From NCBI RefSeq assembly GCF_030013205.1, contig NZ_CP122648.1: 64,000 bases of DNA. One strand, 5' to 3'. Position numbers and translations under genes: made by a program. The notes below the pieces were generated by a model. The model was given only the letters and a program-made list of their open reading frames with translations. It ran no database searches and was not told where the DNA came from. Source of the stretch: Escherichia coli. Its GTDB lineage: Bacteria; Pseudomonadota; Gammaproteobacteria; Enterobacterales; Enterobacteriaceae. Shown here piece after piece: positions 44,561-50,507 of the stretch. Within the stretch, counting starts at the first letter, position 1. Every line of letters starts with the position of its first letter.

Positions 44561-44574
44561 TTGATAACGATCAA
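44561..44574. promoter_or_regulatory. FNR-binding site upstream of ydhY
   Basis: TTGATAACGATCAA, perfect match to FNR consensus TTGAT-N4-ATCAA, about 200 bp upstream of ydhY. Confidence 0.6.
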
Positions 44575-44776
44575 TGTTAAGAGCTCAGAATAATCACATT
44601 ATTTTTTTCTCCTAACCATAAAGGATTAGTTTATCAGCGTTAAGTTTTTTCTCATACACTATCGGGTTAGGGAAAATATCTGGTGTTGGGGACAGAGTCA
44701 GCAGCGTATTAGTTGAATGCTTAATATCAGTCTGCTGAATTGTCAGCACTGTGTTTGCGAAGAGGATGCGAAATAA

Positions 44777-45403
44777 ATGAACCCGGTTGATCGTCCACTA
44801 TTAGATATTGGCTTAACGCGATTAGAATTCTTGCGTATATCAGGAAAAGGCCTTGCTGGTTTAACAATTGCCCCTGCGTTACTGTCACTTTTGGGTTGCA
44901 AACAGGAAGATATTGATAGCGGCACAGTAGGGTTGATAAATACACCCAAAGGGGTGCTGGTGACCCAACGTGCTCGATGCACGGGTTGCCACCGCTGTGA
45001 AATCTCTTGTACCAACTTCAACGATGGCTCAGTAGGGACATTCTTCTCCCGTATCAAAATCCATCGCAATTATTTCTTTGGCGACAACGGGGTTGGCTCT
45101 GGCGGCGGCCTGTATGGCGATCTCAACTATACCGCGGACACCTGCCGTCAATGCAAAGAGCCGCAATGCATGAACGTCTGCCCGATTGGTGCGATTACCT
45201 GGCAGCAGAAAGAAGGGTGTATTACCGTCGATCATAAACGTTGTATTGGCTGTAGCGCCTGTACTACGGCATGCCCGTGGATGATGGCCACCGTAAATGC
45301 CGAAAGTAAAAAATCCTCGAAATGTGTGTTATGCGGTGAATGCGCAAACGCCTGCCCAACAGGGGCGTTAAAAATTATCGAGTGGAAAGATATTACTGTG
45401 TGA
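44777..45403 (+). CDS. ydhY: Ferredoxin-like 4Fe-4S protein
   Basis: 208-aa ORF with multiple CxxCxxCxxxCP motifs. Confidence 0.92.
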   Translation: MNPVDRPLLDIGLTRLEFLRISGKGLAGLTIAPALLSLLGCKQEDIDSGTVGLINTPKGVLVTQRARCTGCHRCEISCTNFNDGSVGTFFSRIKIHRNYFFGDNGVGSGGGLYGDLNYTADTCRQCKEPQCMNVCPIGAITWQQKEGCITVDHKRCIGCSACTTACPWMMATVNAESKKSSKCVLCGECANACPTGALKIIEWKDITV

Positions 45404-45423
45404 ATCTTGCAAAGGAAAAAATC

Positions 45424-48240: not shown

Positions 48241-48909
48241 ATGTCCTTCACTCGACGCAAATTTGTTCTGGGGATGGGAACAGTAATCTTTTTTACTGGT
48301 TCTGCGTCTTCTCTGTTAGCGAACACGAGGCAAGAAAAGGAAGTTCGGTATGCCATGATTCATGACGAGTCACGGTGCAATGGCTGTAATATTTGCGCCC
48401 GCGCATGCCGTAAAACTAACCACGTCCCCGCTCAGGGAAGCCGTTTATCGATAGCACACATTCCAGTCACCGATAACGACAACGAAACGCAGTATCACTA
48501 TTTTCGCCAGTCATGCCAGCACTGTGAAGATGCTCCTTGCATCGATGTTTGCCCGACAGGGGCGTCGTGGCGTGATGAGCAGGGGATCGTGCGGGTAGAA
48601 AAATCGCAGTGCATCGGCTGCAGTTATTGCATTGGCGCTTGCCCGTACCAGGTTCGCTACCTTAACCCTGTCACTAAAGTGGCAGATAAATGTGATTTCT
48701 GCGCTGAGTCCCGACTGGCAAAAGGCTTTCCGCCCATTTGCGTCAGCGCCTGCCCGGAACACGCCTTGATCTTTGGTCGCGAAGATAGCCCAGAAATTCA
48801 GGCGTGGTTGCAGGAAAATAAATACTATCAATATCAGCTACCTGGTGCCGGGAAACCGCATCTGTATCGCCGATTCGGTCAACATTTGATTAAAAAGGAA
48901 AATGTATGA
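48241..48909 (+). CDS. ydhX: Tat-signal ferredoxin-like 4Fe-4S protein
   Basis: 222-aa protein from ATG at 48241 (MSFTRRKFVLG twin-arginine signal); four Cys clusters. Confidence 0.9.
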   Translation: MSFTRRKFVLGMGTVIFFTGSASSLLANTRQEKEVRYAMIHDESRCNGCNICARACRKTNHVPAQGSRLSIAHIPVTDNDNETQYHYFRQSCQHCEDAPCIDVCPTGASWRDEQGIVRVEKSQCIGCSYCIGACPYQVRYLNPVTKVADKCDFCAESRLAKGFPPICVSACPEHALIFGREDSPEIQAWLQENKYYQYQLPGAGKPHLYRRFGQHLIKKENV

Positions 48910-49691
48910 ACCCGTCGCAACATGCTGAACAGTTTCAGAGCCTGTTGGCGAACTATGTGCCACAGTTCACTCCCGAATTTTGGCCGGTGTGGTTGATCAT
49001 TGCCGGACTATTGCTGGTTGGGATGTGCTTGGTGCTGGGGCTGCATGCCTTGCTTCGTGCTCGTGGCGTGAAGAAATCAGCCACCGATCATGGTGAGAAG
49101 ATTTATCTTTACAGCAAAGCGGTCAGATTATGGCACTGGTCGAATGCGTTACTCTTTGTATTGTTGCTGGCAAGTGGGCTGATAAATCACTTTGCGCTGG
49201 TGGGCGCAACTGCGGTTAAAAGTCTGGTTGCGGTGCATGAAGTTTGCGGATTTTTGTTACTGGCATGCTGGCTTGGCTTTGTTCTGATCAATGCCGTTGG
49301 GGGTAATGGTCACCACTATCGCATTCGTCGTCAGGGTTGGCTGGAGCGAGCGGCAAAACAAACGCGATTTTATTTGTTTGGTATTATGCAGGGGGAAGAA
49401 CATCCTTTCCCGGCAACAACACAGTCTAAATTTAATCCCTTACAGCAGGTCGCCTATGTTGGTGTCATGTATGGATTGCTGCCGTTGTTACTATTGACGG
49501 GGCTGCTGTGTCTCTATCCGCAAGCCGTGGGAGATGTGTTTCCTGGCGTAAGATACTGGTTATTGCAGGCGCATTTTGCTCTGGCATTTATAAGCCTCTT
49601 TTTTATCTTCGGTCATCTTTATCTTTGCACCACGGGGCGTACGCCACACGAAACCTTTAAAAGCATGGTCGATGGCTATCACCGGCACTAA
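48906..49691 (+). CDS. ydhU: Membrane cytochrome b-type subunit (PhsC-like)
   Basis: 261-aa polytopic ORF; 4-nt overlap with ydhX. Confidence 0.9.
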   Translation: MNPSQHAEQFQSLLANYVPQFTPEFWPVWLIIAGLLLVGMCLVLGLHALLRARGVKKSATDHGEKIYLYSKAVRLWHWSNALLFVLLLASGLINHFALVGATAVKSLVAVHEVCGFLLLACWLGFVLINAVGGNGHHYRIRRQGWLERAAKQTRFYLFGIMQGEEHPFPATTQSKFNPLQQVAYVGVMYGLLPLLLLTGLLCLYPQAVGDVFPGVRYWLLQAHFALAFISLFFIFGHLYLCTTGRTPHETFKSMVDGYHRH

Positions 49692-49694
49692 CGA

Positions 49695-50507
49695 ATGATC
49701 ATTACACGAGCAGACCTGCGAGAATGGCGTATCGGAGCGGTGATGTATCGCTGGTTCCTGCGCCATTTCCCACGCGGCGGTAGTTATGCCGATATTCATC
49801 ATGCACTGATTGAGGAAGGATATACGGACTGGGCGGAGAGTCTGGTTGAGTATGCGTGGAAAAAATGGCTGGCGGATGAAAACTTCGCGCATCAGGAAGT
49901 TTCCTCTATGCAAAAATTGGCCACAGATCCCGGAGAGAGAGCATTTTGTAGTCAGTTTGCCCGCAGCGACGATCATGCTCGCATCGGCTGTTGTGACGAT
50001 AACGCCAGAATCGCAACCGCTGGGTATGCTGCACAAATTGCCAGTATGGGTTATAGCGTGCGGATTGGAAGTGTCGGCTTTAACAGTCACATTGGCAGCT
50101 CCGGTGAGCGTGCACGGGTTGCTGTAACCGGCAATTCTTCGCGGATAAGCAGCGCTGGAGATAGTAGTCGGATTGCGAATACCGGAATGCGAGTACGCGT
50201 TTGTACATTGGGTGAACGGTGTCATGTCGCCAGTAATGGTGACCTGGTGCAAATCGCCAGCTTTGGCGCAAACGCCAGAATTGCCAACAGCGGCGACAAT
50301 GTATACATCATTGCCAGCGGTGAAGATTCAACAGTAGTGAGCACGGGCGTGGTCGACTCAATTATTCTCGGGCCAGGGGGAAGCGCCGCACTGGCATATC
50401 ATGACGGCGAAAGAGTTCGCTTCGCCGTCGCCATTGAAGGTGAAAACAATATTCGAGCCGGAGTCCGCTATCGCCTTAATGAACAGCATCAGTTTGTTGA
50501 GTGCTGA
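49695..50507 (+). CDS. ydhT: Uncharacterised protein YdhT with tandem nonapeptide repeats
   Basis: 270-aa ORF; residues ~93-227 show 9-residue periodicity (xxxR[IV]xxxG). Confidence 0.9.
   Translation: MIITRADLREWRIGAVMYRWFLRHFPRGGSYADIHHALIEEGYTDWAESLVEYAWKKWLADENFAHQEVSSMQKLATDPGERAFCSQFARSDDHARIGCCDDNARIATAGYAAQIASMGYSVRIGSVGFNSHIGSSGERARVAVTGNSSRISSAGDSSRIANTGMRVRVCTLGERCHVASNGDLVQIASFGANARIANSGDNVYIIASGEDSTVVSTGVVDSIILGPGGSAALAYHDGERVRFAVAIEGENNIRAGVRYRLNEQHQFVEC

Follow-up and report, generated by a model that had tools for sequence, protein, structure and literature searches.

The ydhYVWXUT operon of Escherichia coli: a probably periplasm-facing, quinone-linked molybdoenzyme system built on a conserved three-protein core

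Introduction

What does the ydhYVWXUT operon of Escherichia coli do, and on which compound does its enzyme act? The operon encodes one of the last respiratory-type molybdoenzymes of E. coli without a known substrate. Relatives of its catalytic subunit, YdhV, are common in gut anaerobes, and knowing the substrate would close a gap in the understanding of anaerobic metabolism in the gut. Here, we address these questions for the copy of the operon that lies on a stretch of E. coli DNA from contig NZ_CP122648.1 (the window: all 64,000 nucleotides that were analyzed). An earlier note, made from the letters of the window alone (the sequence-only reading), had put the operon forward as a lead. The operon is real, but it had already been published and named.

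We think it reasonably probable that ydhYVWXUT specifies a periplasm-facing enzyme that is linked to the quinone pool and works as a quinol-linked reductase for a non-aldehyde substrate. Such a reductase is favored over an aldehyde-oxidizing enzyme because of the operon's activation by FNR and repression by nitrate, an active site unlike that of aldehyde:ferredoxin oxidoreductase (AOR), and a negative aldehyde screen of a relative. The present work re-identifies a known locus and gives no new handle on the substrate. It adds a twin-arginine pattern in YdhY, folds for YdhW and YdhT, and a candidate 7-2-7 site in the promoter; these additions are incremental and were partly anticipated by a recent study (PMC13328260).

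Results

Identity and conservation of the locus

The region is, with effective certainty, the E. coli ydhYVWXUT operon. Megablast identifies the window as E. coli chromosome, with several porcine enterotoxigenic E. coli and O139:H1 genomes 100% identical to it. Open reading frames, together with the RefSeq annotation of these identical genomes, give six genes:

44777–45403, + strand: ydhY, 208 amino acids
45424–47526, + strand: ydhV, 700 amino acids
47539–48177, + strand: ydhW
48241–48909, + strand: ydhX, 222 amino acids
48906–49691, + strand: ydhU, 261 amino acids
49695–50507, + strand: ydhT, 270 amino acids

All six frames are intact and lie on the same strand, separated in order by 20, 12, 63, −4, and 3 nt; the start of ydhU overlaps the stop of ydhX by 4 nt. 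All six proteins pass the curated cut-offs of their respective NCBIfam equivalog models. The gene identities given by the sequence-only reading are borne out by these models and by RefSeq, and its coordinates, running from the FNR box to the ydhT stop (44561–50507), are exact. Promoters and terminators predicted within the operon either fall on the wrong strand or are no more frequent than in shuffled controls.

The 6.4 kb operon stretch is present at a coverage of at least 80% in 5396 of 5426 complete E. coli genomes. Matches to the locus occur at 5432 places in E. coli genomes, two of them on plasmids. One of the 5426 genomes has no match, and about 30 have partial coverage only; these are rare cases of locus loss or relocation.

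A conserved core across phyla

Relatives of YdhV were sought in one genome per species, giving 80 loci, and all frames of these loci were scored with profiles for the six Ydh proteins, TatA, TatC, and FdhD. We find that YdhY, YdhV, and YdhW form a conserved core, that YdhX and YdhU are proteobacterial additions, and that YdhT occurs in Enterobacterales only. Loci of Enterobacterales have the order Y-V-W-X-U-T, and a metagenome-assembled genome (MAG) of Telmatospirillum has Y-V-W-X-U. X, U, and T are absent from the loci of Firmicutes, Fusobacteria, Coriobacteriia, and a Desulfobacteraceae MAG. These loci typically read Y-V-W-FdhD-TatA-TatC or W-TatA-Y-V, and tatA and tatC often adjoin the YdhY gene.

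In 35 non-proteobacterial loci, the genes found repeatedly around the core all serve cofactor synthesis or insertion, tungstate-type transport, or twin-arginine translocation (Tat). Among their products are a MoeA-like domain protein, a MOSC protein, an XdhC-related AOR maturation factor, a TupB-like permease, MoaA, and a polyferredoxin. The neighbors of the core in these 35 loci did not point to a substrate. HGD-D/BcrAD genes stand beside the Alkaliphilus locus and were rejected as such a clue, as they do not recur elsewhere.

Compared with E. coli, the proteins are conserved to decreasing degrees, V > Y > X > U > W > T (amino-acid identities of 80, 78, 69, 62, 42, and 34%, respectively, for Proteus mirabilis), which indicates that the accessory proteins evolve much faster than the redox subunits. 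YdhV is 92–93% identical between Escherichia and Citrobacter.

Some loci depart from the common layout. Citrobacter sp. NCU1 has two operons (L031 and L050) with YdhV at 93% and 86% identity, and the second has no ydhT. Firmicutes bacterium UBA2530 has two tandem YdhY-YdhV pairs (L069:3519-12085). In Clostridia-type loci (L065–L069, L073, and L077; e.g., L073:8005-9093), YdhV is followed by a polyferredoxin of about 360 amino acids with several 4Fe-4S motifs and then by a second tatA-like gene. This polyferredoxin may be an alternative electron-transfer partner in organisms without YdhX and YdhU. Finally, ydhV, ydhX, ydhU, and ydhT each fall into several frames in Candidatus Symbiopectobacterium endolongispinus (L087), where ydhW is missing, and in Citrobacter amalonaticus AUH_CA_2023_1 (L086). 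The first case looks like gene decay in an insect symbiont; the second may reflect sequencing errors.

YdhV is of the AOR/WOR family with a BamB-like cysteine

YdhV scores 1374 bits against NCBIfam model NF007354 and belongs to the AOR/WOR family, as the sequence-only reading had proposed in calling it a pterin enzyme of AOR type. Homologues of 57–79% identity carry PF02730 and PF01314 (AFOR_N and AFOR_C). The nearest solved structures among the PDB matches are AOR, FOR, and BamB, with E-values from 1e-60 to 1e-27.

These homologues share C307-x2-C310-x3-C314 and C336 without exception. The first three cysteines align to the [4Fe-4S] cluster motif of AOR and BamB, and the invariant C558 is a candidate for the fourth cluster ligand. 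A profile alignment of YdhV with BamB runs through the cluster motif and ends one residue before BamB Cys322, and hidden Markov model alignments to AOR and BamB end before or at the Cys336 region. The alignment is consistent with Cys336 being the equivalent of BamB Cys322 and is no proof of it; the equivalence itself comes from the literature. To our knowledge, no E. coli enzyme other than YdhV has been shown to bind a bis-Mo-MPT (molybdopterin) cofactor.

The literature describes Cys336 as an extra metal ligand, as in BamB, and YdhV as lacking the second-shell residues typical of AOR (PMC12096430). The bound cofactor is redox-active, and Reschke 2019, in the account given by PMC9103625, found no substrate. 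A recent classification puts YdhV in clade 41, within the “Class V” tungsten/molybdenum oxidoreductases (WORs), and predicts it to be periplasmic and membrane-associated (PMC13328260, June 2026). No Class V enzyme has an assigned activity or role, and CsWOR41L, a Cetobacterium relative that prefers tungsten, showed no activity on 46 aldehydes when assayed without its small subunit (PMC13328260). The label “aldehyde oxidoreductase-like” therefore fits YdhV as to family and overstates its chemistry, given the BamB-like Cys336, the absent second-shell residues, and the negative aldehyde results. Screens of aldehydes are unlikely to succeed with YdhV. A 2025 review and a 2026 paper leave the enzyme without an assigned substrate (PMC12096430 and PMC13328260). 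The sequence-only reading had called the substrate undefined; since the 2025–2026 reviews give none, no established substrate displaces that description.

The promoter combines FNR, nitrate, and iron control

The control region upstream of ydhY contains the following features:

44508–44526: candidate Fur box TCAAATGATAATAAATATC, the best intergenic match (14/19 to the consensus, a score reached by 8 of 139 equal-sized blocks of the window and thus not above background)
44512–44540, + strand: sigma-70-like promoter match ATGATA-17-TATAAT (10/12), about 25–50 bp upstream of the FNR box
44561–44574, + strand: FNR site, perfect TTGAT-N4-ATCAA dyad TTGATAACGATCAA, occurring once in the window
44597–44602, + strand: probable −10 hexamer CATTAT, placed from the published −42.5 spacing and the sequence
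44610–44776, + strand: 5′ untranslated leader of about 167 nt, predicted from the position of the start site
44613–44628: 7-2-7 inverted heptamer pair TAACCAT-AA-AGGATTA, just downstream of the predicted start

The FNR sequence TTGATAACGATCAA was found in none of 100 shuffles and is the sole zero-mismatch TTGAT-N4-ATCAA in the window. It lies within the most AT-rich stretch of the region (G+C 0.26, 44350–44649), with its center 209.5 bp upstream of the ydhY ATG. Before ydhY, the dyad is perfect in each of the Escherichia and Citrobacter loci examined and has one mismatch in Leminorella and Limnobaculum; no site with at most one mismatch was found upstream of ydhY in Proteus, Brenneria, or Serratia-like loci. 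FNR chromatin immunoprecipitation sequencing (ChIP-seq) has shown that ydhYVWXUT is directly activated from a site at −42.5 and that its expression depends on FNR (PMC3688515). This agrees with the perfect FNR box that the sequence-only reading had seen in the AT-rich region. Adding 42.5 to the dyad center (44567.5) puts the transcription start near 44610.

Four blocks are invariant or nearly invariant in a promoter alignment of nine Escherichia and Citrobacter species: the FNR dyad; CACATTAT, which holds the plausible −10 element and is invariant; CCTAACC-TAAAGGATTAG, which contains the 7-2-7 pair and is nearly invariant; and the last ~40 nt before the ydhY ATG, highly conserved and including a GAGGA ribosome-binding site. 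Relative to K-12, one extra T is present in the T-run at 44602–44608, between the −10 hexamer and the predicted start. An Rfam search of 43700–51000, leader included, gave no match at E ≤ 1, and a riboswitch or other known RNA in the leader was rejected on this basis.

Each heptamer of the pair at 44613–44628 agrees with TACYYMT, the NarL/NarP consensus, in 6 of 7 positions. The pair is likely to be a NarL/NarP operator, judging from the match, and its place just downstream of the predicted start suits a repressor. Partridge 2008 reportedly described the operon and its repression by nitrate and nitrite through NarL/NarP. The combination of FNR activation and nitrate repression is typical of low-priority terminal reductases; dmsABC and frdABCD are examples.

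Two further inputs have been published. The ydh promoter is preferentially transcribed in vitro by the sigma-S holoenzyme (PMC3141248), and a Fur ChIP-seq peak lies at the promoter, with the operon Fur-regulated in strain CFT073 (PMC7157518). We list the weak Fur match at 44508–44526 because of that peak; its core, ATAAATATCA, is conserved in the nine species. The sigma-70-like match at 44512–44540 overlaps this candidate box and could be a second, FNR-independent promoter, repressed by Fur or favored by sigma-S. Such a promoter would fit the reports of FNR-free transcription in vitro with sigma-S and of control by Fur. The sequence-only reading thus had the FNR input right and missed the published NarL/NarP and Fur controls. 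Elsewhere in the window, the strongest Fur-box match is GATAATCATTATCACTAAC (34807–34825, 16/19), which we take to be the known sufA promoter Fur site, as it lies upstream of suf genes annotated in the flank of a matching genome.

YdhX and YdhU as a probable electron-transfer module

The N-terminus of YdhX (MSFTRRKFVLGMGTVIFFTGSASSLLA) is a canonical Tat signal with the motif TRRKFVL, and the peptide is listed among the Tat signals of E. coli (PMC7549933). The protein has 16 cysteines in four [4Fe-4S] motifs and matches NrfC, DsrO, TtrB, and DmsB. Its best match outside its own family is NrfC, at 248 bits and below the NrfC cut-off. These features confirm its earlier description as a Tat-targeted ferredoxin.

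YdhU has five hydrophobic segments by hydropathy. At least 98% of 46 orthologues, with identities as low as 55%, keep His77, His111, His223, and His237. The protein matches NCBIfam NF011582 and TIGR02125 (Ni/Fe-hydrogenase cytochrome b), and homologues carry PF01292. The membrane cytochrome b-like anchor of the sequence-only reading is in keeping with the hydrophobic segments and histidines, and YdhU is presumed, from this sequence pattern, to be a two-haem cytochrome b of the PhsC/FdnI/HyaC type with a quinol/quinone site. The Prokaryotic Genome Annotation Pipeline labels ydhU “phsC”, which is a family name and does not imply a demonstrated thiosulfate function. The operon has no PhsA-like gene, and a thiosulfate reductase of the PhsABC kind was rejected.

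In Edwardsiella tarda (L007:4690-9954), the operon comprises ydhY, ydhV, ydhW, ydhX, and ydhT, with ydhT directly after ydhX and no ydhU. YdhT is thus retained even where the membrane cytochrome is absent. This operon adjoins nap nitrate reductase genes and a narQ/narP-like pair.

The same architecture could run in reverse. YdhV would then be a dehydrogenase for a reduced compound in the periplasm (an aldehyde or some sulfur or organic compound), and the electrons would travel by way of YdhY, YdhX, and YdhU to quinone. We regard this as possible and rather less than likely. FdnI/HyaC-type cytochromes do serve dehydrogenases, YdhU matches their models, if weakly, and no measurement so far fixes the direction of flow. 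However, nitrate and nitrite repress ydh, whereas the respiratory dehydrogenase fdnGHI shows the opposite response, and the clade of YdhV lacks the residues for aldehyde oxidation and has the BamB-like Cys ligand (PMC12096430). The failure of CsWOR41L to act on any of the 46 aldehydes also speaks against a dehydrogenase, for a preparation from which the small subunit was absent (PMC13328260). We therefore retain a quinol-linked reductase as the preferred reading.

The twin arginine of YdhY is absent where YdhX is present

YdhY has 16 invariant cysteines in four CxxCxxCxxxC-type groups, which correspond to four [4Fe-4S] clusters of the DmsB/NrfC/PhsB type. Its N-terminus, MNPVDRPLLDIGL-TRLEFLR-ISGKGLAGLTIAPALLSLLG-C41, is Tat-like, with a hydrophobic stretch and L-L-G-C. 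R15 and F18 are invariant, and the consensus of the homologues is TRREFLK, followed by a hydrophobic stretch and Gly-Cys. E. coli YdhY has no consecutive arginines (T-R-L-E-F-L-R); it keeps the T/S, the first R, the F, the L, the basic residue, and the hydrophobic stretch.

A canonical twin arginine is present in all 34 YdhY proteins from loci without YdhX, as TRREFLK, TRRDFLK, or SRRQFLK, and as TRRxVLA in Coriobacteriia (in 3 of the 34, it was read from the printed sequence, the automatic choice of motif being wrong). In all 45 readable proteobacterial YdhY proteins, it is replaced by R-L, or by R-Q in Telmatospirillum. The signal-like peptide, including L-[LF]-G-C, is otherwise almost invariant in Enterobacterales. 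The Gly-Cys pair is kept in most homologues and is absent in the Cetobacterium and Coriobacteriia loci. The twin arginine is therefore missing from YdhY in exactly the lineages that carry YdhX, and the topology of the enzyme is not to be assumed.

The sequence-only reading had placed YdhY in the cytoplasm. We find this unlikely from the Tat-like signal with its lipobox-like Cys and from the twin-arginine homologues beside tatA and tatC; a periplasmic location has also been predicted in the literature (PMC13328260).

A cytoplasmic arrangement nevertheless has a case. YdhY and YdhV would form a cytoplasmic ferredoxin-pterin enzyme, with only YdhX in the periplasm and YdhU carrying electrons across the membrane to or from the periplasm or the quinone pool. 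On this view, a relic Tat signal would survive at the N-terminus of YdhY and serve to bind a chaperone or to tether the protein to the membrane, as in NarG. Loss of the second arginine normally cripples Tat targeting, and all 45 proteobacterial YdhY proteins lack it. YdhY is also missing from a list of E. coli Tat substrates (PMC7549933), the characterized AOR/WOR enzymes of Classes I–IV are cytoplasmic (PMC13328260), and the literature predicts a cytoplasmic YdhV in Eggerthella and Gordonibacter. On the other side, the near invariance of the hydrophobic stretch and L-[LF]-G-C in Enterobacterales points to a retained membrane or export function, and every non-proteobacterial YdhY is twin-arginine, with tatA and tatC as neighbors. 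PhsC/FdnI-type cytochromes dock their iron-sulfur partner on the periplasmic side, and a cytoplasmic YdhY would have no obvious docking site on YdhU. Two literature sources predict a periplasmic enzyme in E. coli, one of them PMC13328260. Overall, we consider the cytoplasmic arrangement improbable and continue with a periplasm-facing enzyme.

How would YdhY and YdhV then reach the periplasm? The strict tie between the loss of the arginine and the presence of YdhX suggests export on the YdhX signal. On a tentative scenario, which we would not call likely, the core gained the YdhX-YdhU quinol module and lost the second arginine of YdhY in the same lineages, and YdhY and YdhV ride on the YdhX signal as part of a pre-assembled three-protein cargo. 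The N-terminus of YdhY would have been reused as a lipid or membrane anchor or as a docking peptide for YdhW, and YdhW would represent a new structural class of escort or maturation chaperone for exported Mo/W enzymes.

Predicted folds of YdhW and YdhT

The sequence-only reading had left YdhW and YdhT without a function, and they remain so. The YdhW family comprises 515 representatives at 50% clustering. A structure model from a 72-sequence alignment (mean predicted local distance difference test, or pLDDT, of 92.8) shows two tandem winged-helix domains after a disordered N-terminus. The protein is acidic, with an isoelectric point (pI) of 4.5. Across the alignment, Y-P-R-P (137–140) is nearly invariant, and R131, D173, and S188 are invariant.

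YdhW has no Pfam or NCBIfam match beyond the YdhW family itself. A chaperone of the TorD/DmsD/NarJ type was rejected: the model consists of winged helices and not of the all-helical TorD fold, and no family match was obtained. Our best guess for YdhW is a cytoplasmic maturation or escort factor, for cofactor loading or Tat escort, because it is constantly paired with an exported cofactor enzyme beside fdhD and tatAC.

Longer relatives (P0262 and P0266) contain three or four winged-helix repeats, each ending in D-I-x...G-x-x-Y-L-[YF]-S, and we conclude that the repeat is a modular unit. Actinobacterial versions have long, low-complexity N-terminal extensions. Domain fusions were rejected as a clue to function, as the longer relatives add only winged-helix repeats or low-complexity tails.

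A Pfam scan of YdhW and YdhT gave no significant match in the library used. Newer Pfam entries, YdhW_C (PF27264) and YdhT_N (PF27195), are seen on homologues and come without functional information.

YdhT homologues are restricted to Enterobacterales, and ydhT is always at the 3′ end of ydh operons, even at 39–42% identity. Its model (mean pLDDT 85.9) has a five-helix N-terminal domain and then a beta-solenoid with a strand every nine residues; the matches to this fold are generic beta-solenoids only. YdhT is a fast-evolving, Enterobacterales-specific add-on.

Flanking genes

The operon is flanked by fumD upstream and the convergent ydhS downstream. The upstream boundary is formed by:

44111–44320, + strand: fumD (ydhZ, fumarase D), directly upstream, the 5′ boundary of the ydh control region
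44325–44353: fumD terminator hairpin, strong, with a 12-bp stem

In a matching genome, the annotation has a gene for a small protein, ynhH, in the interval from pykF to fumD. At the other end, the stop codons of ydhT (+) and ydhS (−) are 5 bp apart (50507–50513), and the nearest + strand terminator-like hairpin 3′ of ydhT (50713–50730) is inside the ydhS coding region. There is no space for an intergenic terminator, so the convergent transcripts probably overlap.

Discussion

We propose the following mechanism, which builds on the identity of the locus, its regulatory sites, its domain content, and the co-occurrence of its genes, as established here or in the literature. A class II FNR-activated promoter, starting about 167 nt upstream of ydhY, would be switched on without oxygen. 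NarL/NarP would lower transcription in the presence of nitrate or nitrite, and Fur would bind the promoter. In the membrane, YdhU would exchange electrons with menaquinol through haem b. The Tat-exported YdhX, with its four clusters, would hand electrons to the four clusters of YdhY, and these would pass them to the [4Fe-4S] cluster and the Cys-ligated Mo-bis-MPT of YdhV. YdhV would then reduce its substrate, which is probably not an aldehyde. We infer both this direction of flow and the topology in E. coli. Lacking a signal peptide, YdhV would be translocated in folded form, bound to YdhY and/or YdhX. YdhW may assist cofactor loading or Tat escort in the cytoplasm, a role that, like any role for YdhT, is our interpretation.

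It is very improbable that the operon is a cryptic or decaying remnant with no current role in E. coli: it has no known phenotype or activity, its transcripts were too few to detect in MG1655 in the conditions used by one study (PMC7157518), and copies are fragmented in L087 and L086, but the six frames are intact, the locus is present in 5396 of 5426 complete genomes, YdhV is 92–93% identical between Escherichia and Citrobacter and 80% identical to that of Proteus with gene order kept throughout, the elements of the promoter are conserved, and FNR, NarL/NarP, and Fur are documented regulators.

Several points weigh against a periplasmic, quinol-linked reductase assisted by YdhW. Topology in E. 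coli is the weakest link. The R-L motif of YdhY may not be competent for Tat export: with R-L or R-Q in all 45 proteobacterial orthologues, export on its own signal is unproven. Asp at +2 normally keeps a lipoprotein in the inner membrane; the +2 residue of the lipobox-like motif in YdhY is Lys, and L-L-G-C41 (L-F-G-C in Citrobacter) departs at −2 from the strict consensus [LVI]-[ASTVI]-[GAS]-C. YdhY is also not among the listed Tat substrates, and a ydhX mutant had no defect in infection (PMC7549933). YdhW has no similarity to TorD, DmsD, or NapD, and its modeled winged-helix fold could be that of a nucleic-acid binder, against which the pI of 4.5 argues. The assignment of the NarL/NarP site at 44613–44628 is our own. 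Finally, YdhV purified alone was inactive, as reported in PMC9103625, and no activity, substrate, or phenotype backs either direction of electron flow.

Biochemical work on YdhV, which has been inactive when expressed by itself, should have YdhY, YdhV, and YdhW made together and, in E. coli, YdhX and YdhU as well.

The operon can be compared with several known systems. It is the same locus as ydhYVWXUT of K-12 (b1674–b1669), with identical gene order, flanking genes, and FNR box. Only strain-level changes separate the two, with 11 differences in the 457-nt intergenic region.

A related system outside the Proteobacteria is CsWOR41 LSW of Cetobacterium somerae, from Class V clade 41. The two systems share a core of L (YdhV), S (YdhY), and W (YdhW), in which S bears a signal of Tat type. 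Cetobacterium MAG orthologues have 59% identity to YdhV, and neither enzyme has a known substrate. In contrast to CsWOR41 LSW, E. coli adds YdhX, YdhU, and YdhT and has lost the second arginine of the S subunit. It also lacks adjacent tatAC, fdhD, and tupABC and prefers Mo over W.

BamB belongs to the same AOR/WOR superfamily as YdhV and has a Cys as metal ligand (Cys322). Cys336 of YdhV stands at a similar distance from the CxxCxxxC motif, which it follows by 22 residues, against 16 for Cys322 in BamB. BamB is cytoplasmic and tungsten-dependent and is part of the electron-bifurcating BamB-I complex. Similarity between the two is weak outside the N-terminal domain, and nothing points to an aromatic coenzyme A ester as the substrate of YdhV.

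AOR (1aor) and formaldehyde ferredoxin oxidoreductase (FOR, 1b25) of Pyrococcus furiosus share with YdhV the AFOR_N/AFOR_C fold, the [4Fe-4S] motif, and a nucleotide-free bis-pterin. They are cytoplasmic, soluble, tungsten-dependent, and aldehyde-oxidizing, and their metal is not bound by any protein ligand. Their catalytic second-shell residues are lacking in YdhV, according to PMC12096430.

The electron-transfer module can be compared with that of PhsABC, the thiosulfate reductase of Salmonella. YdhX and YdhU resemble the quinol-oxidizing PhsBC pair, YdhU being PhsC-type with five helices. The catalytic subunits differ: that of ydh is an AOR/WOR protein with bis-Mo-MPT, whereas PhsA contains molybdenum bis(molybdopterin guanine dinucleotide) (Mo-bisMGD) and belongs to the dimethyl sulfoxide reductase family. 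The ydh system also has an extra four-cluster subunit, YdhY, between the two parts.

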